This document shows, in pieces, positions 1,289 to 29,429 of a stretch of DNA of 29,429 nt. The notes beneath the pieces were generated by a model that searched no databases, was not told where the DNA came from, and was given only the letters and a program-made list of their open reading frames with translations. Origin of the DNA: a virus (Duplodnaviria; Heunggongvirae; Uroviricota; Caudoviricetes). Both the position numbers and the translations under genes were made by a program. Position 1 is the first letter of the stretch. Each line of letters starts with the position of its first letter. The stretch lies in IMG/VR virus record IMGVR_UViG_2698536379_000013. One strand, 5' to 3'.

Positions 1289-1334
1289 ATGGGTAATTTT
1301 TAGCGGCACACCGAGCGCGGCGGCGCTGGCAAGT
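319..1334. repeat. Direct repeat copy 1 (1016 bp, identical to 1704-2719)
   Basis: Base-by-base comparison of the two stretches; ORF track shows identical translations for plus-strand ORF pairs offset by exactly 1385 bp. Confidence 0.95.
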
Positions 1335-2766
1335 TATTAAGACCGGGTTCGTCCGTTTTAACTATTCCCCCGTCACCGTATGTAGCCAGTATTCCTGGGT
1401 TTACTCCTTCCCGTGCACTTCCTGCGGCGAGTCCGTCCCCTGTCCATAATTCCATATAGTGTGCATGGTCCAAAATTGTGTGTGGCTGCCAATTAAGCAA
1501 AGCGCGACCAGTATCAATCCCGCGACTGTCATCCCAGCCACGAATAAATTCACCGCGTAAATCAGGCAATTTATTGGTCGGGTAAGCCTTTGCCAGTTCC
1601 GGGTATTCTTCAGCAGAAAAAGCCGCACCGTTGCATTTCAGCCAGCCTGTTGGCGGAGTGGCGGAAGGCCACGGAACAGGCACACCAACGGGTAATGCCG
1701 AACCTTCTCCCAAACCAAGGTATGCGAGAAGACCAGCGACATCCTTTCCACTCAAATTAGTCAGCGTATTGTCCAGCGGTTGTTTACCTGCCAGCGCATT
1801 AAGCATTGTCGTGGCAAAGTTCGGATCATTCCCCAACGCCGACGCCAGTTCGTTCAGTGTATCCAGTGCCGCAGGTGCAGAACCTACCATTGCTGCAATC
1901 GCCGATTTCACAAAAGCCGTGGTGGCAATCTGTGTATTGTTGACCGACTGTGCAGCAGTGGGGGCTGTTGGCGTTCCGGTGAGTGCCGGACTCGACAACG
2001 GCGCTTTCAGTGCCAGCGCATTGTTAATGGTGGTACTGAAATTCGGATCATTGTTAATGGCTGCGGCTATTTCTTTCAGCGTGTCCAGCGTGGCTGGCGC
2101 ACCATTAATAAGAGCCGTCAGTGCCGCCTGAACAAACGCGGTGGTCGCAACCTGCGTGGTGTTATTCCCTGCCGCTGGAGTTGGCGCTTTTGGTGTCCCG
2201 GTAAACGTCGGACTTTCTTTGGGTGCATACTGTGAATGCGGGTCCGGTGCGGCAAGATGTTTTGCCATCTGATCATCCACGTACACCTTCAGCTCCAGTA
2301 CCTTGTCATCCACATACTTGCGGGTTGCCAGCACTACGGCAGGGTCGATTTTCAGGGTGATATTGTCCGTGCTGCTGGTAATCAGCACCATGCGCACGGT
2401 CTGGGTACGCCCGCTGCCTTCAGCCAGTTGCGGCTTATAGCTTTCCGGGCAGTTGCCCACGGCAATCAATGCCCCGGACTCATCAAACAGGCCCACTTCA
2501 CGTATCCACCAACCGCCCTCGTTTTCAGGGATCACCTGTTCAGCAATAATCTGGCTGCTGTTCTGCGGGTCGATATAGAGCATATTCAGCGCAGCCCGGC
2601 GTTTCTCATTTACCAATGCTGTCTGCTTGGCGTCCGGCGTTGGCAATGTTCCGCCGCCATCGCCCACCGCCATATGGGTAATTTTTAGCGGCACACCGAG
2701 CGCGGCGGCGCTGGCAAGTTTCGCCGCGCCAATATCCGTCAGCAGGGTATAAAATTTTGTGCTCAT
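1300..2766 (-). CDS. Tail fibre protein (P2 gpH-like) with tail-collar-type C-terminal domain
   Basis: 488 aa, ATG start. N-terminus (MSTKFYTLLTDIGAAKLA...MAVGDGGG...ESYKPQLAEGSGRTQTVRMV) matches recalled P2 H N-terminal region; Ala/Thr-rich repeats; C-terminal PWPSATPPTGWLKCNGAAFSAEEYPELAKAY...LPDLRGEFIRG is a tail-collar-like motif. Confidence 0.9.
   Translation of the reverse strand: MSTKFYTLLTDIGAAKLASAAALGVPLKITHMAVGDGGGTLPTPDAKQTALVNEKRRAALNMLYIDPQNSSQIIAEQVIPENEGGWWIREVGLFDESGALIAVGNCPESYKPQLAEGSGRTQTVRMVLITSSTDNITLKIDPAVVLATRKYVDDKVLELKVYVDDQMAKHLAAPDPHSQYAPKESPTFTGTPKAPTPAAGNNTTQVATTAFVQAALTALINGAPATLDTLKEIAAAINNDPNFSTTINNALALKAPLSSPALTGTPTAPTAAQSVNNTQIATTAFVKSAIAAMVGSAPAALDTLNELASALGNDPNFATTMLNALAGKQPLDNTLTNLSGKDVAGLLAYLGLGEGSALPVGVPVPWPSATPPTGWLKCNGAAFSAEEYPELAKAYPTNKLPDLRGEFIRGWDDSRGIDTGRALLNWQPHTILDHAHYMELWTGDGLAAGSAREGVNPGILATYGDGGIVKTDEPGLNNLPAPPRSVCR
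1704..2719. repeat. Direct repeat copy 2 (1016 bp, identical to 319-1334)
   Basis: Same as copy 1; period 1385 bp, unique spacer 1335-1703 (369 bp). Confidence 0.95.
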
Positions 2767-3368
2767 GGATTCACTCTCATTGTGTCAATAACATGGACCG
2801 CCCCGCCTTCATGCGCGGTGCCGCCGGAAATAATTGTTTCGTTGATATACGGATAGATCGTGATTTCTTCGCCAAGATAGCTGGCGGCCCCCACCCAATG
2901 CGGACCGCTGGTCTGCAGATTGATGGACATGCCGATCATGTGACGGCTACATGGTTTGGCATCGCTTATCAGCCGCTCAAGTTCCAGATAGGTATCTTCA
3001 GTGATGCCCTGGTCCTGCACGCCGATATCCAGGCGAAACGTGCCCGGTGTTTCTCCGGTCTGCCACCACTCAATAATGCGGATCAGGAATCCGAACGGTT
3101 CCACCACCCGCCGCACGGCACTGGTAGTTCCTTTATGCTGATGAATATAAAAAGCATCCTTCACTACCTGGCGTTTGACGCTTTCTGTCCAGCCCTCGTC
3201 CCAGCGATCCACAGAGAACGCCCAGGCGAGATAAGGCAGGAAGCTGACCGGACAGGTAGCCGGATTCCACAAGTCACGCAGCGGCACCTGCAGATCAGAA
3301 ATCCCGCTACAGGTTTGCGCCAGTCGGCGCTCCAGTGAAGTTGAACCCGGTGGCAGCAGACTATTCAT
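2763..3368 (-). CDS. Baseplate protein (P2 gpI-like)
   Basis: 201 aa, ATG start, overlaps H start by 4 nt; position between J and H; N-terminal LLPPGSTSLERRL resembles recalled P2 gpI. Confidence 0.8.
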   Translation of the reverse strand: MNSLLPPGSTSLERRLAQTCSGISDLQVPLRDLWNPATCPVSFLPYLAWAFSVDRWDEGWTESVKRQVVKDAFYIHQHKGTTSAVRRVVEPFGFLIRIIEWWQTGETPGTFRLDIGVQDQGITEDTYLELERLISDAKPCSRHMIGMSINLQTSGPHWVGAASYLGEEITIYPYINETIISGGTAHEGGAVHVIDTMRVNP

Positions 3369-4269
3369 CCGTTCCTCCGTTGGTTACGCTCCACTGCGTA
3401 CATGATGCCGCCTGTGTTTTGTTCAGGACCACATCCGCCAGCGGAGAAGCCAGTTCCACACGTTGAACACCCTCAACATGCAGAGCAGCAAAGATGGCGC
3501 TACGGCGAATATCCCGACCAAGCCTCGTCTGGCTGGCAATGTACTTCTGCAGACTGGCTTTTGCCGCTGCCATTACCGGCTCTGCTTCCGGTCCCGGATA
3601 GAGAAAAATGGTGGCTTCCACGCGATACGGGATGATTTCTGCGCTGCGAACCGTAAGACGGTCAGCCACCGGGCGGACGTTCTCACTGTTCAGAGCTTTT
3701 TCCACCACGTCCAGCAGGTCTTTTTCTGCAGTTCCATCGCCTTCGCGGCTAAGGACAGTCAGCACCACCTCTGCAGGTGCCGGGCTGGTTGCACTGGCAT
3801 CCGCCACCCGACCGTCGGCGCTTCGGGCATGAAATTCATAAGCTGCAGTTGGCCCCGCAACTGAAAGCCCTTCAAAGGCTGCAGGCACACGCAGGCGTAA
3901 CGCTTCATCGCTTTCCATCACAGCTGCAACGGGCGGCACAGCGTCATTATCAGCAGGCGTCACCGTCAGGCGTTTCACGTTGTAGTTGGCGGCGAGCTGG
4001 TCCAGATCGCCCCCTATGGCATAAGCCACCATCACCGCCTGCGCGGCTTCGTTAATGCGCTGGCGCAGAAGCAACTCACGGTAAGCATTCTCCTGCAACA
4101 ATTTGGTGACGGGTTCAGATTCCAGTTCCAGCGTGCGGATCACTGCTTCCTGCTCATCTTTCGGATGAAGCGCCACAAATTCTGCCTTGCGTTCGGCAAG
4201 CAGCGTCTCAAAGTCCGGCACATCCACAATCTGCGGCGCAGGCAACTGCGAAAGGTCAATCACTGCCAT
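3361..4269 (-). CDS. Baseplate assembly protein J (P2 gpJ-like)
   Basis: Strong resemblance to recalled P2 gpJ (IDLSQLPAP..., LELESEPVTKLL, RSADGRVAD, GRDIRRSAIFAALHVEGVQRVELASPLADVVL). Start set to ATG 4269 (MAVIDLSQ) with GGAG 6 nt upstream; the ORF-track start at 4308 is a GTG extension. Confidence 0.9.
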   Translation of the reverse strand: MAVIDLSQLPAPQIVDVPDFETLLAERKAEFVALHPKDEQEAVIRTLELESEPVTKLLQENAYRELLLRQRINEAAQAVMVAYAIGGDLDQLAANYNVKRLTVTPADNDAVPPVAAVMESDEALRLRVPAAFEGLSVAGPTAAYEFHARSADGRVADASATSPAPAEVVLTVLSREGDGTAEKDLLDVVEKALNSENVRPVADRLTVRSAEIIPYRVEATIFLYPGPEAEPVMAAAKASLQKYIASQTRLGRDIRRSAIFAALHVEGVQRVELASPLADVVLNKTQAASCTQWSVTNGGTDE

Positions 4270-4615
4270 TCTCTGCTCCTGTTGATACGGAAAGGGAAAC
4301 AGGCACACCGTTATTACGCCGCCCGGTCAGCTCCACCACCATTGAACCGTCAAAATTGCTGTTAATGGTGATGGAATCCAGCGTCAGCCGTGGCTCCCAG
4401 CGACTCAGCGCCACATACACTGCCGACATGACCTGCAGGCGTAATGCCGGATTTTGTGGCTGGTCTATCAGTGCCGACAGCAGGGAACCATATTCCCGAC
4501 GGGCAATGCGGCTACCCTGCGGCGTCAGCAAAATGTCCCGCACCGACTGGCGCAGATGATCAATATCAGTAATGGCTTTACCGCTGGTATTGTTCATCCC
4601 GCTATAAAGCGTCAT
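4256..4615 (-). CDS. Baseplate assembly protein W (gp25-like)
   Basis: 119 aa, ATG start; resembles recalled P2 gpW (DIDHLRQSVRDILLTPQGSRIARREYGSLL...DQPQNPALRLQ). Confidence 0.85.
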   Translation of the reverse strand: MTLYSGMNNTSGKAITDIDHLRQSVRDILLTPQGSRIARREYGSLLSALIDQPQNPALRLQVMSAVYVALSRWEPRLTLDSITINSNFDGSMVVELTGRRNNGVPVSLSVSTGAENGSD

Positions 4616-5236: not shown

Positions 5237-5254
5237 TGTGTGGTAAATGACACA
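5237..5254 (-). promoter_or_regulatory. TGT-N12-ACA dyad, candidate Ogr-type late promoter element upstream of V
   Basis: TGTgtggtaaatgacACA; centre lies 55.5 bp upstream of the V ATG, the same spacing as the dyad upstream of P. The P2 late-promoter dyad consensus is from memory. Confidence 0.45.
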
Positions 5255-5285
5255 AATACAATTCCAATCAAAGAAAGGTAAAAGA

Positions 5286-5816
5286 ATGAGCCATCCAATT
5301 GATTATTACGCTATAGAAGAACACGCAAGAATAATTGAGCAATTATGCTGTTCATCTGAATTTTATTTACAGCGTATATATTCCACACAGAAAGTATATG
5401 ATGGTTCTATAGTAACTGAATTTGAAATGGAGGAGTTATCGTACAACGGATGGTTGGAATATACCATTAGCAACAATCTTATTAGCCTTTGTACAAAACT
5501 ACGAATTCTCCAAGACACTAGTGAACATGAGTGGAACCCAGATTACTCACCTGAGAAAGAAGCATTTGAAGAACATGAAAATATACTTTTTGTTATAGAT
5601 GGTCATGTTAAAGATTCTATACGCGAATGCTGCAATAAAATTATTCACGCATTAAGTTTTGAGTTAACAAAAAAGACCGGCAAAAATGGAATAAAATATT
5701 GGGACGGTTCTATTATTGCTTCTGGGGTTCAAAACAAAAAAAACTGGAAAATTAAAATAGACCTTTTCCCTTTTTGCCAAAGCATAAAAAGTTATTTAAG
5801 TTTATTAAGAGCGTAA
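5286..5816 (+). CDS. Hypothetical protein (AT-rich insert between V and S), function unknown
   Basis: 176 aa from ATG 5286 (MSHPIDYY...), preceded by gaaagg SD-like sequence and a sigma70-like -10 (TACAAT 5257-5262). Opposite strand to the tail operon; visibly AT-rich; no recognisable motif. Confidence 0.6.
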   Translation: MSHPIDYYAIEEHARIIEQLCCSSEFYLQRIYSTQKVYDGSIVTEFEMEELSYNGWLEYTISNNLISLCTKLRILQDTSEHEWNPDYSPEKEAFEEHENILFVIDGHVKDSIRECCNKIIHALSFELTKKTGKNGIKYWDGSIIASGVQNKKNWKIKIDLFPFCQSIKSYLSLLRA

Positions 5817-14210: not shown

Positions 14211-14909
14211 TTATTTGTTTCTTCTTTGTTCACGCCTTGTCTTGGCTTCGATAAGGCGTTGAGGTTCAGTGTAAAGCCGTTCTAAAAAAAGATAGGTAAA
14301 ATCTTCAAGATCCTCAGCAGCAGCTTTATCCAAAATACCTTCATGCGCTCCATCATTTCCGTCATCTTTAACGCATTCAGCTAGTTCCCTTAAAGCTTCA
14401 GGCAGTAGATGATTATCAAATAACCACTCCATTCTTAACCCTAGGCTTCTCCTTATTTTTTGCGCAGGCCCTTGCTCCCCATCAGGAAGAAGTCCTTTTG
14501 TGGCATAATCAAGGCAAAGCCTAAACATGGTTGCTGCTGCATTATAACAACCTATAGCCAAACATTTCGCCCCTTCCTCATATGCACTATTGATATGCTC
14601 AGGTAAGAACTCTGGTGGCTCCTCTACTGCTAAGTCTGCCGGTGATATAGGCCTAACAACCTCTGCAACTTCCTTTAAGCCGAATATTCCACTTTCCCAA
14701 TTATAGCCATCTAAAGTTTTATTTTTCGTTAAAGGTCTGCAAAGAAACATTGTCGTTTTATGACACTCTCGGCAAACACAATAGACCTCGTACTCGTATG
14801 TTTTACCCCCGCCCAATGCATTGTAAACCCTAGTGCAATTCAGCCCATTAACATCAAACGCTATTTTTTGTGATCCACATCGTGGACAGTCATCCACTAA
14901 CATAACCAT
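14211..14909 (-). CDS. Hypothetical zinc-ribbon protein (cargo gene between portal gene and cos)
   Basis: 232 aa, ATG with AGGGAGGAG SD. N-terminal Cys cluster CPRCG...CVCRECH; C-terminal alpha-type region with GNDGAH motif, loosely reminiscent of DUF4145-type domains (recall only). AT-richer than flanking genes. Confidence 0.65.
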   Translation of the reverse strand: MVMLVDDCPRCGSQKIAFDVNGLNCTRVYNALGGGKTYEYEVYCVCRECHKTTMFLCRPLTKNKTLDGYNWESGIFGLKEVAEVVRPISPADLAVEEPPEFLPEHINSAYEEGAKCLAIGCYNAAATMFRLCLDYATKGLLPDGEQGPAQKIRRSLGLRMEWLFDNHLLPEALRELAECVKDDGNDGAHEGILDKAAAEDLEDFTYLFLERLYTEPQRLIEAKTRREQRRNK

Positions 14910-15019
14910 GTCAATTACTCCTCCCTATGAAAAAAATGAGTTGAAAAATTGAATATTCACGACTTAAAAAGCTAGCCTATTTAACACCATAATTTCATTA
15001 ATTCAACCATGAGCGCGCG

Positions 15020-15038
15020 CTCGTATCCCCGCCACGCC
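15020..15038 (-). other. Putative cos (cohesive end) site, P2/186-like
   Basis: Minus-strand GGCGTGGCGGGGAtacgag; first 13 nt match the recalled 186 cos overhang GGCGTGGCGGGGAAAGCAT. Adjacent perfect palindrome GAGCGCGCGCTC at 15011-15022. Confidence 0.4.
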
Positions 15039-15082
15039 TGCCCGCTTTATGTAGTGGTTTTCATGCGCCTGCATGACATAAG

Positions 15083-15107
15083 CAAAAGCCCGCCATTCCT
15101 AGCGGGC
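15083..15107 (-). terminator. Rho-independent terminator-like hairpin ending the SOS operon
   Basis: Stem gcccgc/gcgggc (15088-15093 and 15102-15107), 8-nt loop, followed on the minus strand by a T-run (A-run 15084-15087 on plus). Confidence 0.5.
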
Positions 15108-15198
15108 CTCAGCTAAAACGATCCTCAAACGATCATGCGGATTCATGCGGCATAGACATGCACAATCGCCAAAGCGGGCATCGAGACTTTTTGGAAAA

Positions 15199-15810
15199 CT
15201 ACGTAACCACAGTTAATGTGTGCATCCTGTCTCGAATTGCATCACACGTCTCATCAAAAAGCTTGGTGATGGTTGTACGGTTCAACTCTGCCTCTTTCCA
15301 ATAATTTTGCCAGTCAAATTCTGGATCGCCATGCTGAAACGATATTGACTCTGAAAGGCATTCCTTCCGGAAACGGTCCAAGATTATATAAACCTCTGGT
15401 GAGATGAACGGTTTGTTAGACTCAACACTTGTAACAAAAGTATTAAATGCATCGAAAAAAACTTTCAACCTTCTAAATTTTCTCTCTTCAAATGGTTCGT
15501 TGGGGTCAAAATGATCCAGCGCAGGCCTCAGCTTAAGCACGCTTTCTCTGGTTTCAAACATCGAATTCCAAATGAGACTATATGCTGATAACTCCTTATC
15601 AAAATACGCTTTCGTTACATAAACAGAATTGTCTAACTTAGCCTTTATTCTTTCATTAGTTGCACTCAGTTGTGATTGAAATTCAGCAATATCTTTGTTT
15701 AGCCGCGACTTATATCTTTCTAAATAAACTTTCCCGATCCAAACAAATATGCCAGATGCAACAAAAGACACCCCACCCAACGAAGCCAGAATTTTAAAGA
15801 CTAAATCCAT
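15199..15810 (-). CDS. Hypothetical membrane-anchored protein (SOS-operon cargo)
   Basis: 203 aa, ATG with AGGTGGGGG SD; N-terminal TM helix (ILASLGGVSFVASGIFVWIG) then soluble domain; AT-rich; last gene before the terminator. Confidence 0.65.
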   Translation of the reverse strand: MDLVFKILASLGGVSFVASGIFVWIGKVYLERYKSRLNKDIAEFQSQLSATNERIKAKLDNSVYVTKAYFDKELSAYSLIWNSMFETRESVLKLRPALDHFDPNEPFEERKFRRLKVFFDAFNTFVTSVESNKPFISPEVYIILDRFRKECLSESISFQHGDPEFDWQNYWKEAELNRTTITKLFDETCDAIRDRMHTLTVVT

Positions 15811-21875: not shown

Positions 21876-22124
21876 TTAGTCACCAACGATGACATTAAAG
21901 TTGAAATTGGATTGGCCCATGTTTTTCCTGACTTGTTCCTTTTTGTACTCAAGGTAACGTATACATACTCTGTCTTTCGGTTTTTCTTTTCTTTCCAAGA
22001 ATTTAGCGAGTTTTCCATTATGAATCATTTGATATACCGAACCGCGAGAGCGGCCTTCCCATTCCGCGAACTCAGCTGGTGTCGCCATCACTTTTGGTAC
22101 ACGAATTGAAATGTCGTTGCTCAT
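21876..22124 (-). CDS. Apl/Cox-like excisionase-repressor (HTH)
   Basis: From ATG 22124 (MSNDISIRVPKVMATPAEFAEWEGRSRGSVYQMIHNGKL...), divergent from the repressor gene in the 186 apl position. Confidence 0.65.
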   Translation of the reverse strand: MSNDISIRVPKVMATPAEFAEWEGRSRGSVYQMIHNGKLAKFLERKEKPKDRVCIRYLEYKKEQVRKNMGQSNFNFNVIVGD

Positions 22125-22241
22125 AGTGCAGTATCTCTTAGTTTGTAATCGTATCATCTCGTTTTATGTGGTTTGGTTTTGCTTTTCAAACCATGAATGG
22201 ATATTAAGATCTCATTTTATATGCGTCAGGGGGGTTTGATT
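22125..22241. promoter_or_regulatory. Lysis-lysogeny switch intergenic region (apl/cI promoters and operators)
   Basis: 117-bp AT-rich region between divergent apl-like and cI-like genes; candidate plus-strand promoter TTGCTT(22179-22184)-17-TATTAA(22202-22207). Confidence 0.45.
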
Positions 22242-22874
22242 ATGAGTCTAATCAAGGGTGGAAACGATAGTGGGGGGCGTGATGCCATCAACAGGCTGAT
22301 AAAAGCCTACAATTTCAGCTCACGCCAACAACTCTGCGAACACTTAAAAGTATCTAAAAGCACCATGGCAAACAGATACTTAAGAGATAGCTTTCCAGCA
22401 GAGTGGGTAATTCAATGTGCTCTAGAAACCGGGATCTCGCTTCTTTGGTTGGCAACCGGACAGGGTGATATGTATGCAGATAACTGTGACTCAAACATTC
22501 TCAAAAATGATAATGACGTCACAATTAGACCACTTTCTAAAATCGTAGCTCCCAGTATCAAATACACAGAATTAAGAAATGGTGAACTTCAATCATATGA
22601 CGAAATTTTATTAGATAGCAGGTTGGTTGAGGGCGATTCGTCAAACTATCTATTCATACAAACGACAACAGAAAGTTTTATTGTTGATGTATCTGTAAAA
22701 CAGATCAGTAATGGCTCTTGGCTTGTTGATATTGATGGAGTGAAAAGCATCGTAAAAGTAGCTCGAATTCCCGGAAATAAGCTTGTTGTTCATCAGGAAG
22801 AAACAACCTTTGAATGTGCAGTTGATGACGTAGCCGTTGTAGGGCGTGTGGTAAAAGTGATTAAGAGCATCTAA
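22242..22874 (+). CDS. Immunity repressor CI (186 CI-type, no obvious S24 peptidase motif)
   Basis: HTH segment SRQQLCEHLKVSKSTMANRYL; start set to ATG 22242 (alternatives 22197 and 22221); stop immediately precedes the int ATG. Confidence 0.7.
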   Translation: MSLIKGGNDSGGRDAINRLIKAYNFSSRQQLCEHLKVSKSTMANRYLRDSFPAEWVIQCALETGISLLWLATGQGDMYADNCDSNILKNDNDVTIRPLSKIVAPSIKYTELRNGELQSYDEILLDSRLVEGDSSNYLFIQTTTESFIVDVSVKQISNGSWLVDIDGVKSIVKVARIPGNKLVVHQEETTFECAVDDVAVVGRVVKVIKSI

Positions 22875-23914: not shown

Positions 23915-24811
23915 ATGACAGAGCTCTACCTTTTAGATCGAAACATAATTGATCTAATGAATAAGCACAACAATTCTTCTAATATCCCAGAACCTAATAG
24001 AATTGATATGCTTAATAAATTAAAAGCATTAGATATCAAAGGAAATACTTTCTCACCTTTACTATCAATAATAGAAGGAAAAACCCATAAAAAACTTGAC
24101 AGTAACGGCAAATTAGAAATCATAAAAACACCTAATAAAAAAATAAGAAAATTAATTATAGAGGATAGTGAAATTGTAAAATCATTTATTAAAGAAGCTA
24201 ACACTGATTATGATTTCCTAACATCCAATGTAAATAAACTATCAAAAATAATATATGAAAAAGAAACTGACAGATTAATAGATAAAAAAACAAAATTCCT
24301 TGATAAGCTACAAGAAAAAATAGGGGAAACAAAGAAAGTAGAACAACGAGAGAATACATATTATGAGTTTAAAGAGATAGTAAACGAGTTTAATGAATTT
24401 AAAAACCAACCGTTTACAATTGTAGCTCTGATGTATATCTTTGGAAGCCAACGAGCTGAGAAGATATTAAAATTTAAAAGTAAAAATTTTTCATCTTATA
24501 ACCCAATTGCTGATTTTAATCATTACAAAACCACTATCCAACTTAGATTTGATGATAGATTAAAAGATAATGCAAACATACATTTTATTTCACTTGATTC
24601 AGATATTGAATTTATACAGCAACTTTTTCATCCTAATAATGCTAAAATTAGTAGTTCAACAAACTACACTAATACTTTAGCTATTGAGTGGACAATTAAT
24701 AAAAATTTTCTACAGAGTGAAATACCGGAAACAAAGGGCGAACTCAACAATCAAGAATTGTTTTACTCATGCTTTCAAGACTTGTATGGGTACGATGCCC
24801 GCGTGTCTTAA
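23915..24811 (+). CDS. Hypothetical protein (AT-rich cargo between int and att); N-terminus resembles a PIN-domain first strand
   Basis: 298 aa, ATG 12 nt after the int stop with AAGG SD. N-terminal MTELYLLDRNIIDLM resembles the h-h-D-T-N-h-h motif that opens PIN nucleases (inference from a single motif). Very AT-rich, Lys/Asn-rich. Confidence 0.6.
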   Translation: MTELYLLDRNIIDLMNKHNNSSNIPEPNRIDMLNKLKALDIKGNTFSPLLSIIEGKTHKKLDSNGKLEIIKTPNKKIRKLIIEDSEIVKSFIKEANTDYDFLTSNVNKLSKIIYEKETDRLIDKKTKFLDKLQEKIGETKKVEQRENTYYEFKEIVNEFNEFKNQPFTIVALMYIFGSQRAEKILKFKSKNFSSYNPIADFNHYKTTIQLRFDDRLKDNANIHFISLDSDIEFIQQLFHPNNAKISSSTNYTNTLAIEWTINKNFLQSEIPETKGELNNQELFYSCFQDLYGYDARVS

Positions 24812-24961
24812 CAACAGGTGATAAATAGCAGACTTAATACCTACAATGTGGCGGCATTTTGGCGGCAGAACATTAAAAAAGCGTAAAACGGACAAACACA
24901 AAATAACAATAACAGACTGATTTTAAACGAAACTTAATGTTTTTGTTATGGTAAAAATGGT

Positions 24962-25006
24962 ATGTAGGAATTTCGGACGCGGGTTCAACTCCCGCCAGCT
25001 CCACCA
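24962..25006 (+). ncRNA. ssrA: ssrA (tmRNA) 3-prime terminal fragment, about 45 nt: prophage attachment core
   Basis: ATGTAGGAATTTCGGACGCGGGTTCAACTCCCGCCAGCTCCACCA matches the recalled 3-prime end of enterobacterial tmRNA; upstream sequence is unrelated AT-rich DNA, so this is a partial copy. Confidence 0.75.
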
Positions 25007-25042
25007 CTTTTTAGTTGTTTGAAGTACAATGAAGTCTACTAA

Positions 25043-25074
25043 GCCCGCACAGCACAAGCTCTGCGGGCTTTTTT
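25043..25074 (+). terminator. Rho-independent terminator downstream of the ssrA fragment
   Basis: Stem gcccgca/tgcgggc (25043-25049 and 25062-25068) followed by TTTTTT (25069-25074). Confidence 0.6.
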
Positions 25075-25171
25075 ACGTCTATTGTCGTCCAGTGAGAATT
25101 GCTGAGAACTACGAGTTATGGCACCCTGAATGAGACCCACTAAGAAGGGTCCAAAAACCGAGGGTCCCAAA

Positions 25172-26401
25172 ATGGCAAAAATCGCTAAGAAGCTCACTGA
25201 CACTGAAATCAAAAGCACCAAGCCAGCCGACAAAGAAATCAACTTGTTTGACGGAGATGGTTTGATACTACGAATCGCTCCCCTCTCGAAAGGAGGAAAG
25301 AAGAATTGGTATTTCAGGTATGCAGTGCCAGTGAGTAAAAAAAGAACCAAAATGAGCCTTGGGACCTATCCTCACCTTACACTGGCAAGAGCCAGAGCCT
25401 TACGTGATGAATATCTTTCCTTTCTGGCAAATGGTGTTGATCCACAAATCCATAACAACGATAAGGCGAAGGCATTAAAGAGTGCTACTGAGCACACTCT
25501 CCAAGCCGTAGCGCGGAAATGGTTAGATGAGAAGGTAAAGACATCAGGTATCTCACAAGACCATGCAGCAGACATCTGGCGCAGCTTAGAGAGAAATGTC
25601 TTTCCTGGTCTGGGTAATGTCCCTATCAATGAGATCCGGCCTAAGCTCTTAAAACAACACCTTGATCCTATTAAGCAACGAGGCGTATTGGAAACTCTAC
25701 GCCGTATCATTTCACGTCTGAATGAAATCTTCAGGTGGGCAGCTACTGAAGAACTTATTGAGTTCAACCCGGCTGACAACCTTGGTCAAAGATTCAGTAA
25801 ACCAAAAAAGCAAAATATGCCTGCCCTTCCCCCAAGCGAATTGCCAAGGTTTATGGAATCTTTGACGAATGCGTCAATCCGGTTGGAAACACGTATGCTA
25901 ATTGAATGGCAATTGTTGACATGGGTTCGTCCGGGTGAAGCCGTTCGCGCAAGATGGTCTGATATTGATACAACCAACAGCATTTGGAACATTCCTGCTG
26001 ATTTCATGAAAATGAAAAAGCCTCACAAAGTTCCTTTGAGTAAAGAAGCTTTGCGCATCCTTGAATTAATGAAATCAATAAGTGGGCATAGAGAATGGGT
26101 TTTCCCCAGCATTAAAGCGCCTCTTAATCATATGCATGAACAAACAGCCAACGCAGCTATCATCCGAATGGGGTTCGGAGGCGAGCTTGTAGCTCACGGT
26201 ATGCGTTCTATTGCGCGAACAGCGGCAGAGGAGTCTGGTAAATTCAGAGCTGAAGTTCTTGAGGCAGCGCTTGCCCACTCGAAAAAAGATGAAATTATCG
26301 CAGCATACAATCGTGCAGAATATCTGATAGAGCGACAGAGTTTGATGCAATGGTGGAGTGATTACGTTCAAGCTCAAAGATCAAATGCTCTGGTAGCCTA
26401 A
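25172..26401 (+). CDS. intA: Tyrosine integrase, IntA (CP4-57)-like
   Basis: From ATG 25172 (MAKIAKKLTDTEIK...) with GAGGG SD; resembles recalled E. coli IntA (LTDTEIK, DIWRSLERNVFP, ALETLRR, AALAH, MQWW). Confidence 0.85.
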   Translation: MAKIAKKLTDTEIKSTKPADKEINLFDGDGLILRIAPLSKGGKKNWYFRYAVPVSKKRTKMSLGTYPHLTLARARALRDEYLSFLANGVDPQIHNNDKAKALKSATEHTLQAVARKWLDEKVKTSGISQDHAADIWRSLERNVFPGLGNVPINEIRPKLLKQHLDPIKQRGVLETLRRIISRLNEIFRWAATEELIEFNPADNLGQRFSKPKKQNMPALPPSELPRFMESLTNASIRLETRMLIEWQLLTWVRPGEAVRARWSDIDTTNSIWNIPADFMKMKKPHKVPLSKEALRILELMKSISGHREWVFPSIKAPLNHMHEQTANAAIIRMGFGGELVAHGMRSIARTAAEESGKFRAEVLEAALAHSKKDEIIAAYNRAEYLIERQSLMQWWSDYVQAQRSNALVA

Positions 26402-26439
26402 GTATCAGAATAGCTAATATAATCCTGAAGGTAAAGAAA

Positions 26440-26856
26440 ATGGAAACCCTATTCAAAGTTTTTGAAAAATTTAGTTCCAGACCACTTTTTTTTATTTTTT
26501 TCGGACTCTCACTTTGTGAATTTTTTCAGAAACAATCTGTTCTGATGAATCCATCAGCAGATAACATCGCGAAATTATTCGCAGCCATGATATTAGTTGT
26601 TTTTTTTACTTGGGGATTTGAATGGCTAATCTTTAAATTCAATGTAAACCTTGAACCTCATGATCAAGGCGATATTGGACCAACAATTGGAACGGCTGCT
26701 TTAGCTGTATACTTAGTTTATGCCTTTCATTTTCTCAGTGAAAATCCTGAAGCATTAAATTTAAAGTTATTAACTAACTCTGGTTTTATATACAGCACAA
26801 CTCTATTATTATTCTCATTAGAAAGTATGAAGCTTAGAAGACTTAAACAAAAGTAA
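26440..26856 (+). CDS. Hypothetical small multi-pass membrane protein
   Basis: 138 aa with several hydrophobic segments (LFFIFFGLSL, AAMILVVFFTWGF, ALAVYLVYAF, LLLFSL); AT-rich; convergent with the 603-aa ORF. Confidence 0.45.
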   Translation: METLFKVFEKFSSRPLFFIFFGLSLCEFFQKQSVLMNPSADNIAKLFAAMILVVFFTWGFEWLIFKFNVNLEPHDQGDIGPTIGTAALAVYLVYAFHFLSENPEALNLKLLTNSGFIYSTTLLLFSLESMKLRRLKQK

Positions 26857-28654
26857 ACAACATCATTGCGAGATAAATACAAAAGAGGTATGGCGGTAAA
26901 TCACCATACCTAAAACATAATAATTTTGGTAGTATCGGTGATACATAATCCACACAAATATTGGAGCGATACTGAGACGCTATAACCTGATATCTTTCTC
27001 CATAACCAATTCTAAGTTCAGATTTAAGATGCGTTTTTTTCTTTCCCTTTTTCTTTTGGGGTTTATCGTGATGTGAATAATATATCTTTGGTTTCAGATT
27101 AAATCCTTCAACAACTTCCTTCCAAGTTTGAACCGCTAATAAAAATTGAATAGAATTGATGTCAATTAATTTTTTAGCTTTTGTAGTAGTTGAGATCCAT
27201 AAAACCACATCAGTAATTGTCTCTTCAAATTTTACTACTCCTCTTACTATAGTTTGAATTGTGGTTTTTGACTGTTCAATATTATAAATTAGATCATGCG
27301 GTTTATCTGATATCTTTACAGCAATAATCTCTCCATTTTTATAAAGATCTGCAACTTCAACATTGTAGTCCTTGCCATTATCACGTAAGGATGGTATTTT
27401 TTTTAGCTGGCGATCTAGAAGTATATAACCTTTCTCATCAGACATCTTTTCATTAAAATAATATTCTCTATATTCTAATTTGTCTTTAGAAGTTCCTTCT
27501 GCGATTTGTTTTATTTTTTCAGCTTGCCATACTTTGAAGTCGTCTTCCTTAAGAGCATCTTTAACCTCAAATTTTATACTGGCTAAAGAAGTAGACAAAT
27601 ACTTCATAAAAGCAGAGTTAAATCGACTCCATCCTCCCCTCTTAAGGAAGAAGTGCTCGCTGCCCTCGCTATAAGTAATGCTCAATATTTCTTTTAACGA
27701 GGCTGTATGACCACTGTTATTTTCATTAGTTATCTTAACAAAAACTTTATTGACATCTTTTATGTTGTTATTTTTTATGAATTTCTTTACATCTGCTATT
27801 TTTATGTCATTAATTTTATCTGATGATTGAAGATACTTTCCACTCCCCTCAACTTTTGTGTGCAATTTAAAAAATGTCAAAGAATTATTAATTACAATAG
27901 AGGCACCAAAAGATTGAATCTCATCAATAATAACTTTTGCATCATCTGTAATGATCGATTGAAGTAGACAATTATCAAGCTCATCTATCTTTGACTCGTC
28001 AGTGATTTTTTCCGATTTAGGAAATTCGATTTTCTCTTTGGTTGCCAACGAAGAATCAATATCATTGAAAACATCGACTAATGCAGTAGGAGCACCATCC
28101 AAACTTAGCTGAATTGAATCAGAAAAAGTTATATTATTACATCCCCACTTGTCAGTTTCTTTGGCTTTTGTTTTGAGATGCTCGATGGATTCGCCAGGAA
28201 AATATGCTCCTTGAACAAACTGTGAGTATGAGGATGCCTCCTGACTCTTTCCCCCACAAAAGAATCTGCTTTTCTTGAGTAAAATATTTTCATCATTAGC
28301 TATACGCATTGCCACATTCAGCCCAAAGTCTGCTTCAATAAACTTGCTGAGATAAAAATGTGATTTACCAAGACTGATAAGATAGCAATTCTCAGGGTCC
28401 TTTTCTTTAAATCCTATTAGCAGGCCAAAATAGAATATATTATGAGGCTTTTCAATTTCTTCATTGAAGAAATCACTAAAAACATCCCACCACCATACTT
28501 CATTTCCTTTTAATTTATCAGAAAAATAAAATTTGAGTTGATAAGATTGATGTAGAATAGTTTTTTGTTCGACAAGCCCTTCTTTAATGATTTTTTTTGT
28601 CAATTCTGGAAGACTCTTATATGGCATTCTATATATGTTATAGCTGACTGACAT
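26843..28654 (-). CDS. Large hypothetical protein (603 aa), no recognisable catalytic motif
   Basis: Long ATG-initiated ORF with AGAGG SD-like sequence upstream; AT-rich, Lys/Asn/Ile-rich; no Walker A, no CxxxCxxC; the last ~50 codons look like hydrophobic read-through. Confidence 0.65.
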   Translation of the reverse strand: MSVSYNIYRMPYKSLPELTKKIIKEGLVEQKTILHQSYQLKFYFSDKLKGNEVWWWDVFSDFFNEEIEKPHNIFYFGLLIGFKEKDPENCYLISLGKSHFYLSKFIEADFGLNVAMRIANDENILLKKSRFFCGGKSQEASSYSQFVQGAYFPGESIEHLKTKAKETDKWGCNNITFSDSIQLSLDGAPTALVDVFNDIDSSLATKEKIEFPKSEKITDESKIDELDNCLLQSIITDDAKVIIDEIQSFGASIVINNSLTFFKLHTKVEGSGKYLQSSDKINDIKIADVKKFIKNNNIKDVNKVFVKITNENNSGHTASLKEILSITYSEGSEHFFLKRGGWSRFNSAFMKYLSTSLASIKFEVKDALKEDDFKVWQAEKIKQIAEGTSKDKLEYREYYFNEKMSDEKGYILLDRQLKKIPSLRDNGKDYNVEVADLYKNGEIIAVKISDKPHDLIYNIEQSKTTIQTIVRGVVKFEETITDVVLWISTTTKAKKLIDINSIQFLLAVQTWKEVVEGFNLKPKIYYSHHDKPQKKKGKKKTHLKSELRIGYGERYQVIASQYRSNICVDYVSPILPKLLCFRYGDLPPYLFCIYLAMMLFTFV

Positions 28655-28722
28655 TTAATCGCCTCTGAAATATATATTCATACAAGTTAATGTTAAAGTG
28701 AAAAATTTTTAATATACTTAAT

Positions 28723-29400
28723 TTATCGAGCTAAAATACTTAATGAATTTAACAACTGTATATCCAAGGTTTCACTTGAGGGCACTGGTAGTCCGTTCGC
28801 AATGCGATAATTTTTTATTGACTGCCTTGTGGAAGGCCCCATTATGCCGTCAATATTCCCGTTGTAATAATCTTTGTCCAGCAAAGCGAATTGAACCCGC
28901 ATGATTAAGCGCTTACGCTTCTCTGTACCAGAAGTCAGCCCATTACTTGCACGGTTAGCTTCTGTAGTTCCAACAGAATTCGTAGTAGTAGAGTTGTTAT
29001 TGTCGTTAGAACGAAGCGAACGCACAGAGGAAGAGGACGATGAGGGACTTGTTCCTGAACTTGAAGACCCAGATGAACTTGGTGAGCTGTATGTTTTTGG
29101 ATAATAGGGAGTGCTGCCACCATAGTACCCGCCACCTGATGATGAACGGTGAGAACTATGGCTCCGATGGGAGCTATGACTGCGATGCCCTGCAATGTAG
29201 AATGGAACTTCGGTGTTAAGTGGGGCTATCACTAAATCATGTTCATTAAGAGTCATACCAGGCAAATCACTTGCCCATACAGAATTATTGAGTGCCAAAA
29301 ACCCCGGAAGTAGAGCAGCAAAATGAACCGCCCCGGTTTTCCTGGAGAGTGTTTTATCTGTGAACTCAGGCTGCCAGATCATCGTTTCTGATGGAAGCAT
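28723..29400 (-). CDS. Secreted His-Xaa-Ser repeat protein with C-terminal peptidoglycan-binding-like domain (possibly HxsA-like)
   Basis: Signal-peptide-like segment AVHFAALLPGFLALNNSVWA; five tandem His-Xaa-Ser triplets HRSHSSHRSHSSHRS (nt 29143-29187); Ser-rich linker; C-terminal DGIMGPSTRQSIKNYRIANGLPV resembles PG_binding_1. True start may lie upstream of the window. Confidence 0.65.
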   Translation of the reverse strand: MLPSETMIWQPEFTDKTLSRKTGAVHFAALLPGFLALNNSVWASDLPGMTLNEHDLVIAPLNTEVPFYIAGHRSHSSHRSHSSHRSSSGGGYYGGSTPYYPKTYSSPSSSGSSSSGTSPSSSSSSVRSLRSNDNNNSTTTNSVGTTEANRASNGLTSGTEKRKRLIMRVQFALLDKDYYNGNIDGIMGPSTRQSIKNYRIANGLPVPSSETLDIQLLNSLSILAR

Positions 29401-29429
29401 AATAAGCTTTTTCTGCTTCTGCCGGAGGG

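Follow-up and report, generated by a model that had tools for sequence, protein, structure and literature searches.

How does the 3' end of a tmRNA gene come to lie, detached from the rest of the gene, between the integrase genes of two different elements? The case examined here lies in a tailed-phage record of IMG/VR (IMGVR_UViG_2698536379_000013), a 29,429-nucleotide stretch of DNA that was analysed whole and is referred to below as the window. A preliminary description of the window had placed a 45-nt ssrA 3' end and a terminator between the int side of a prophage and an IntA-like integrase, and this placement proves exact to the base when judged by sequence identity, by the hairpin and by the open reading frames. 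We find that the 211-bp junction very probably arose from two independent integrative elements that came to lie one behind the other at the tmRNA gene's 3' end, a reading built on sequence comparison. The features of the junction and its surroundings are collected in Table 1.

Table 1. Features of the ssrA junction and its two flanks, with window coordinates
Feature	Position	Strand	Evidence or remark
Apl/Cox-type excisionase-regulator homologue	21876..22157	-	likely start residue 12; 74% identity to SopEPhi orf2
186-type CI repressor	22197..22874	+	Pfam Phage_CI_repr 1.6e-32, Phage_CI_C 3e-35
Prophage tyrosine integrase, Fels-2/SopEPhi clade, 341 aa	22877..23902	+	Pfam Int_N and Phage_integrase
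Cargo ORF, 298 aa (ORF298)	23915..24811	+	low GC (~30%); variable slot between int and att
Phage att arm, int-proximal	24846..24961	+	pair of TGGCGGCA direct repeats (186-type Int arm sites)
att core (last 45 nt of ssrA, displaced)	24962..25006	+	ssrA identity, Fels-2 attP annotation, breakpoints on both sides
Left-end leader of IntA-type island	25007..25171	+	same DNA after intact ssrA in L009, L013 and DEC5E
Intrinsic terminator	25041..25076	+	9+3 bp (12-bp interrupted) hairpin 25041-25070, then T6
Island integrase, P4/IntA type, 409 aa	25172..26401	+	Pfam Arm-DNA-bind_3, Phage_int_M, Phage_integrase
138-aa ORF, island cargo	26440-26856	+	
DUF6119/TIGR04141 protein, island cargo	26843-28654	-	Pfam, NCBIfam, DEC5E annotation
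HxsA, island cargo	28723-29400	-	Pfam, NCBIfam, DEC5E annotation
IS3-family element end	from about 29318	.	cuts off remaining hxs operon

The ssrA fragment

The sequence at 24962-25006, ATGTAGGAATTTCGGACGCGGGTTCAACTCCCGCCAGCTCCACCA, matches the ssrA 3' end of E. coli K-12 and of other genomes at 45 of 45 positions, and it comprises the T-arm, the 3' acceptor strand and the CCA of that gene. Its 32-nt 3' part is present in a single copy in the window, where none is expected (100 shuffles). ARAGORN reported neither a tRNA nor a tmRNA in the 29.4-kb window, and a Rfam scan of the window at gathering thresholds gave no match. When the scan was made permissive, the Rfam tmRNA model reached 40.8 bits (E 7.2e-15) at this position, below its gathering score of 47 and with high posterior probability at the 3' end only. 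What defines a functional tmRNA gene, namely a tRNA-like domain that is complete, a reading frame for the tag and the pseudoknots, is not found here. Because ARAGORN is empty and the Rfam match is both sub-gathering and confined to the 3' end, the core is a fragment and the window holds no complete ssrA, as had also been claimed in the preliminary description.

The limits of the fragment are equally clear. A six-way alignment has sharp homology breakpoints at 24961/24962 and 25006/25007, exactly at the ends of the block, and the 45-nt block is the sole stretch that all six sequences have in common, which makes it a core shared by two distinct attachment sites. Base 24963 is a T that matches all of the phage copies, and the corresponding base is a C in the ssrA of E. 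coli O55:H7 DEC5E, an indication that the fragment is a recombinant core and not purely the original 3' end. The T is consistent with a strand exchange that would have taken place to the right of base 24963. The fragment is no gene; for this genome we infer that it serves at once as the prophage's attR and the island's attL.

The prophage side of the junction

The left 22 kb of the window matches P2/186-like prophages of E. coli, the best match among complete genomes having 97.9% identity over 92%, and none of the complete E. coli genomes holds the whole window. In the prophages of relatives, portal, terminase, capsid, tail and replication genes are annotated, and the left prophage end of this genome is estimated to lie 9-10 kb beyond the window. 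The int gene and the apl homologue are both intact ORFs. As a separate observation, the tail-fibre region of the prophage contains a perfect tandem duplication of 1.04 kb, which may mean that the prophage is not intact or that the assembly is imperfect.

With tblastn over 337 aa, the prophage integrase is 94.1% identical to that of Fels-2 (NC_010463.1), 92.6% identical to that of SopEPhi (AY319521.1) and ~39% identical to that of P2. The SopEPhi gene matched by the apl homologue, orf2, is annotated as 'similar to Apl of bacteriophage 186'. The DNA between the cargo gene and the core, 24846-24961, is homologous to the int-to-att regions of both Fels-2 and SopEPhi, and the paired TGGCGGCA repeats, found here in direct orientation at 24849-24856 and 24860-24867, are conserved in both. 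In reverse complement, TGGCGGCA corresponds to tgccGCCActt, the consensus of 186-type Int arm sites (PMC3448106). As an 8-mer it is not rare in the window (6 found vs 2.9 expected), and support for these sites therefore rests on their position and conservation.

The core itself can be recognized in a phage genome record. The two termini of the Fels-2 RefSeq record NC_010463.1 are annotated as attP core halves, which when joined give the sequence of 24962-25006 plus two bases. PMC3448106, citing Pelludat et al. 2003, names ssrA as the gene into which SopEPhi and Fels-2 integrate. Taken together, the integrase clade, the arm, the attP core, the ssrA target and the Apl homologue show that 24846-25006 forms the att junction on the int side of a prophage of Fels-2/SopEPhi type. 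Like Fels-2 and SopEPhi (Felsduovirus; P2-like, with a 186-type integrase), this prophage has CI and Int oriented toward att, an Apl homologue, a closely related integrase, an att core that is the ssrA 3' end and a paired TGGCGGCA arm. It differs from them in its host, an E. coli of O55:H7-like background, whereas the ssrA used by those phages is that of Salmonella, in the presence of ORF298, which belongs to no family, where SopEPhi has orfY and Fels-2 has nothing, and in its right-hand neighbour, an IntA-type island.

The slot between int and att varies among these prophages, with gapS1 in strain WEC, other ORFs in WP3-S18-ESBL-09 and VG12A2, orfY in SopEPhi and no gene in Fels-2. For ORF298 there was no significant match in PHROGs, PADLOC or NCBIfam, and in Pfam a single sub-threshold match, to DUF4709 (E 0.0023; 18.7 bits vs a cut-off of 27). 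The exact ORF298 protein is carried by many 186-like prophages that have other right flanks. Three such loci were compared with the window: the att arm is identical in two of them (L004 and L005) and one base off in the third (L006), the right flank leads into the csiD region in L004 and into ypjA or other DNA in L005 and L006, and all three diverge completely from the window at 25007.

The island side of the junction

The leader at 25007-25171 is homologous to the ssrA-intA spacer of K-12, where, in agreement with the preliminary description, intA lies directly downstream of ssrA (the gap is 203 bp). The breakpoint at 25006/25007 shows that the island starts at the CCA end of ssrA and brings a terminator with it. 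The hairpin of this terminator has a ΔG of -20.4 kcal/mol (z -5.17), a stability equalled by 0 of 200 shuffles, and a terminator scan agrees with it; moreover, the hairpin is kept in the leaders of K-12 and Citrobacter, and in prophage-free genomes the island hairpin equivalent to 25041-25076 serves as the terminator of ssrA.

For the island integrase, NCBIfam PRK09692 gives 441.7 bits, above its cut-off of 434, and the identity to IntA of K-12 is 48%. Its DNA is 100% identical to that of DEC5E WP_001358980.1, whose annotated start is the ATG at 25172. An alternative start at 25130 was considered and rejected, since the annotation of the 100% identical DNA in DEC5E matches 25172 instead. An ORF on the opposite strand (25039-25350) was likewise dismissed as spurious, the integrase start at 25172 being the one matched in DEC5E.

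The island most resembles CP4-57 of E. coli K-12 in its arrangement: the integrase gene lies ~165-200 bp past the CCA end of ssrA, the terminator hairpin supplied by the island is homologous, the integrase has the same domain architecture and PRK09692 is matched above its cut-off. The two differ in that the integrases share 48% amino-acid identity, in that the cargo here is a DUF6119/TIGR04141 protein and an Hxs system truncated by IS3, and in that CP4-57 follows an intact ssrA but the island in the window follows a displaced fragment.

The same island is found elsewhere with nothing ahead of it except ssrA. The sequence from 24964 to 29429 (4466 nt, the IS3 junction included) is 100% identical to that of E. 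coli O55:H7 DEC5E, in which an intact 363-nt ssrA adjoining smpB is followed by the leader, the integrase, the 138-aa ORF, the DUF6119/TIGR04141 gene, hxsA and IS3, and in which the prophage is absent. From 25007 onward the window is also near-identical to strain WEC. Fuller versions of the island, with hxsB, hxsC, hxsD and further genes, follow intact ssrA in six other genomes (L009, L010 and L012-L015). The exact protein of the 138-aa ORF is likewise present in other genomes.

Layout and frequency in other genomes

The end of the prophage that lies beyond the window can be viewed in related genomes. Reading from smpB in either WP3-S18-ESBL-09 or WEC, one meets the 363-nt ssrA, a small ORF and ogr, then the genes for tail, head and replication, next CI, Int and the cargo gene, and lastly the ssrA fragment and the island integrase. 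The intact ssrA thus stands at the far (ogr) end of the prophage, adjoining smpB, which is where the preliminary description had expected it. The regenerated ssrA of Fels-2 and WP3-S18 is followed by a phage-supplied terminator and by further arm repeats; the displaced fragment retains the terminator supplied by the island. Close counterparts of the window, such as WEC (NZ_CP114592.1), WP3-S18-ESBL-09 (NZ_AP022036.1) and VG12A2 (NZ_CP128592.1), share its succession of CI, Int, cargo, arm, 45-nt core, leader, integrase and 138-aa ORF. They differ from it in the junction, which is 92-96% identical, in the cargo gene between int and att, and in the island variant, whose integrase is WP_001341819.1 rather than WP_001358980.1.

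Among 5426 complete E. coli genomes, 64 contain the tripartite junction of phage arm, core and island leader and 983 contain an intact ssrA joined directly to the island leader, an arrangement ~15 times commoner than the tripartite one. Other elements also use the site. In O55:H7 CB9615 the same slot is occupied by a lambdoid prophage whose integrase is different and whose match to the ssrA end is shorter, and in Citrobacter pasteurii a leader of CP4-57 type comes after the same phage arm and core. A scan of species representatives for the phage arm and core found two Citrobacter genomes only.

A model for the origin of the junction

Elements whose integrases target tDNAs have the gene's 3' end duplicated in their attP; upon integration the gene is thereby remade at one end of the element, and the displaced fragment is left at the other (PMC4383910). 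Along these lines we infer how the events followed one another, where this genome has its intact ssrA, and that the prophage would be competent for excision. An island of IntA/P4 type, now truncated by IS3 and partly decayed, would already have been resident behind ssrA, having used the 3' end of that gene as its attachment site. A temperate phage of Fels-2/SopEPhi type (P2/186-like, Felsduovirus-like), the attP of which would hold the last ~45-47 nt of ssrA together with a terminator of its own, would then have arrived, and its tyrosine integrase would have recombined the attP core with its identical counterpart in the ssrA of the chromosome. A functional ssrA would have been rebuilt at the far (ogr) end from the chromosomal 5' part, the phage-borne 3' end and the phage terminator, and the old 3' end would have ended up at the prophage's int end, ~33 kb further downstream. 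The attR fragment, along with Int and Apl, would be needed for excision of the prophage. Since the fragment copies the ssrA 3' end perfectly, a precise excision would make ssrA whole again and join it to the terminator of the island.

That the prophage inserted into ssrA ahead of a pre-existing IntA island had been proposed in the preliminary description, and the proposal is supported by the breakpoints, by DEC5E and by the 983 vs 64 genomes. With the ssrA-island state ~15 times commoner than the tripartite state, an early island and a later prophage are favoured. The same order is favoured by the divergent backgrounds in which the island occurs, by the several phages that are found ahead of it and by the IS3-truncated state, which is identical in the prophage-free DEC5E. 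Indeed, the presence of Fels-2-like phages with varied cargo, and of a lambdoid phage, ahead of the same island indicates repeated phage arrivals.

Alternative explanations

The structure of the junction is by itself compatible with either order of insertion, and the events might have taken place in reverse, with the Fels-2-like prophage entering ssrA first and the island later entering the 45-nt attR fragment. The island boundary falls immediately after the CCA, which means that the 45 nt must contain the island core, and an island might in principle use the fragment as its target; moreover, precise loss of the prophage in DEC5E would also yield the ssrA-island junction seen there. We nevertheless consider this order unlikely. 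It requires insertion of the island into attR and then loss of the prophage in DEC5E, and it must contend with the 983 direct ssrA-island junctions found against 64 tripartite ones in the 5426 genomes. The ssrA-island junction is present, too, where the flanking housekeeping genes are divergent (L012 and L015), the same island is preceded by different phages (Fels-2-like ones with varied cargo, and a lambdoid one), and a genome free of the prophage has the island in the same IS3-truncated state, at 100% identity.

Could prophage and island instead move as one composite element with two integrases, the ssrA fragment being an internal relic? Recombination between the intact ssrA and a distal repeat of the island could in principle excise both. 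This is very improbable, because the two parts are distributed independently, which argues against a composite: the same phage, with the exact ORF298 and with an arm that is identical or one base off, occurs before ypjA or csiD without the island, and the identical island occurs in DEC5E without the phage.

The presence of the 3' 45 nt alone, and the 177-nt partial 'ssrA' that PGAP annotates at the equivalent place in WP3-S18, could be taken to suggest a decayed pseudogene whose 5' 318 nt were deleted or overwritten, in a genome that uses another tmRNA gene or none. We give this a negligible probability, for the DNA upstream of 24962 is a phage att arm and not degraded ssrA, the breakpoint is that of the annotated Fels-2 attP core, and in relatives the intact gene is found at the opposite prophage end. 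A local tmRNA gene at the junction, functional or decayed, was rejected.

Just as far-fetched is an IsrM-type small RNA encoded at the junction and ending at the 25041-25076 terminator: the Rfam model (RF02763) aligns to 24931-25074 with an E of 3.8e-18, its 3' ~95 positions near-identical and the terminator included, but the match is not full-length and scores 67.1 bits against a gathering score of 376, 39 nt stand in for the central 214 of the 329 positions of the model, the shared part consists of the ssrA end and the island leader, which are present after intact ssrA too, and no promoter-like site was found at the aligned 5' end.

Discussion

Two stacked elements at ssrA, the reading preferred here, would form a familiar arrangement. 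Tandem island arrays at tRNA and tmRNA genes were reportedly treated by Williams in 2003 ('Traffic at the tmRNA gene'). In the junction studied here, two elements with integrases of their own are separated by a displaced tDNA fragment that marks their boundary, and in these respects it is like the tandem tDNA arrays on record, with no difference in kind. Such arrays at tDNAs are described in the Islander work, in which the tmRNA gene is the most enriched target (PMC4383910) and in which each member of an array is defined as having its own integrase and its own tDNA fragment (PMC4383910). The window contains two integrases and one tDNA fragment and so documents half of such an array; the island's own distal fragment would lie beyond it. 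Tandem elements at ssrA, the ssrA att site of Fels-2 and SopEPhi and islands of IntA type are all already known, and with the first two of these published the junction is therefore an ordinary one.

Its arrangement does suggest some consequences for transcription that we regard as a long shot. The island terminator would now end the unit that contains the phage int and cargo genes, and a short transcript across the core, resembling the two ends of Salmonella IsrM, could be an att-junction small RNA, or could act as an insulator and keep transcription of the phage uncoupled from the island integrase. As a separate idea of the same low likelihood, ORF298 could be a new anti-phage gene; the slot that it occupies holds GapS1 in a sister prophage.

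The junction is one more case of ssrA as a busy landing pad, with little import beyond correct annotation. The exact boundaries of both elements are fixed by it, the prophage having its right end at 25006 and the island its left end at 25007, and the proper annotation for the 45-nt piece is that of an att site, not that of a partial ssrA gene. For the host, the excision of such elements need not be equivalent. Excision of CP4-57 in K-12 is reported to entail the loss of one base of ssrA (PMC10107115). Excision of the prophage described here, unlike that of CP4-57, is predicted to leave ssrA normal, the perfect copy at the junction predicting a tmRNA that would be intact once the prophage has left.

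Accessory genes of the prophage and the island

The integrase-to-att slot of the Fels-2/SopEPhi-type prophage holds a 298-aa ORF that finds no match in PHROGs, PADLOC or NCBIfam and whose sole Pfam match, to DUF4709, falls below the cut-off (E 0.0023). The exact protein is common across 186-like prophages (265 index blocks), and we regard the ORF as a candidate accessory or defence gene. Elsewhere the same slot carries gapS1 (WEC), other ORFs (WP3-S18 and VG12A2) or orfY (SopEPhi), or is empty (Fels-2).

The slot that separates the portal gene from the replication module, the P2 old/tin-type hotspot, also carries cargo. It encodes a DUF4145 protein, which PADLOC matches weakly to PD-T7-4 (E 1.2e-6), and a 203-aa protein whose sole known match is phrog_26391. 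The equivalent slot of WP3-S18 encodes a retron Ec67-type reverse transcriptase. The 189-aa ORF among the tail genes matches only phrog_18838, a family of unknown function, and has no match in Pfam, PADLOC or NCBIfam.

Positions of cargo, tail-fibre and other ORFs in the window
Feature	Position	Strand	Remarks
Complete tail-fibre gene	1300-2766	-	488 aa
189-aa ORF	5247-5816	+	39% GC pocket amid tail genes, on the strand opposite to them
Prophage cargo	14211-15810	-	Low GC; portal gene to replication module
298-aa ORF	23915-24811	+	~30% GC; variable int-att slot
Island cargo	26843-29429		DUF6119/TIGR04141 protein and HxsA

The DUF6119/TIGR04141 protein of the IntA-type island is of the 'sporadically distributed' type. 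An IS3-family element starting at ~29318 interrupts the island cargo and cuts off hxsBCD (radical-SAM) and CTD1/MComp1/SMC-like genes, which are kept in fuller copies of the island.

At the other end of the window, the body of the tail-fibre gene is present as a direct tandem repeat of 1.04 kb (297-1335 and 1682-2720, 100% identical). The complete gene is followed by a second copy that is without the first ~15 codons, differs in its C-terminal domain and extends past the left window end. Either the assembly is at fault here or the duplication is real, in which case it could supply the phage with alternative receptor-binding tips.

The ssrA fragment and its likeness to IsrM

Within the 45-nt core, the 3' end of ssrA at which prophage and island meet, base 24963 is polymorphic. 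The window, the phage copies, K-12 and WP3-S18 all have T here. DEC5E, L009 and L013, three genomes in which the island is present and the phage absent, have C at this position of their intact ssrA. The T is consistent with a phage-derived left edge of the ssrA fragment. At the equivalent fragment of E. coli WP3-S18-ESBL-09 (NZ_AP022036.1), RefSeq places a 177-nt 'ssrA' (2986-3162 of locus L001) that overlaps the phage cargo CDS. Only its last 45 nt are ssrA-derived, the remainder being phage att arm, and it looks like an over-extended annotation.

IsrM is a Salmonella island sRNA, and its Rfam model aligns by both its ends to 24931-25074 (+) with an E-value of 3.8e-18 and 67 bits against a gathering score of 376. 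Because the last ~95 IsrM positions correspond to the CCA end of ssrA followed by the leader and terminator of this island, the alignment suggests that the Salmonella sRNA too ends at an analogous displaced ssrA/IntA-island junction.

Stacking at ssrA in other genomes

In E. coli O55:H7 CB9615 (CP001846.1; 8430-8740 of locus L011), a lambdoid prophage lies between ssrA and the same island as in the window. It encodes a 394-aa integrase with an Arm-DNA-bind_2 domain and carries a DUF4760 gene, and the stretch of ssrA common to it is the last ~27-36 nt only, with one mismatch. It represents a second phage family, one that uses a different sublocation within the same ssrA site.

Citrobacter pasteurii CIP 55.13 (4120-4420 of locus L019, -) has the Fels-2-type att arm and the 45-nt core as in the window; downstream of the core lie a leader and terminator that, in all stretches aligned visually, agree with the spacer of K-12 CP4-57 (ssrA-intA). 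Stacking of this kind is thus found in Citrobacter as well, there with a different IntA-type neighbour.
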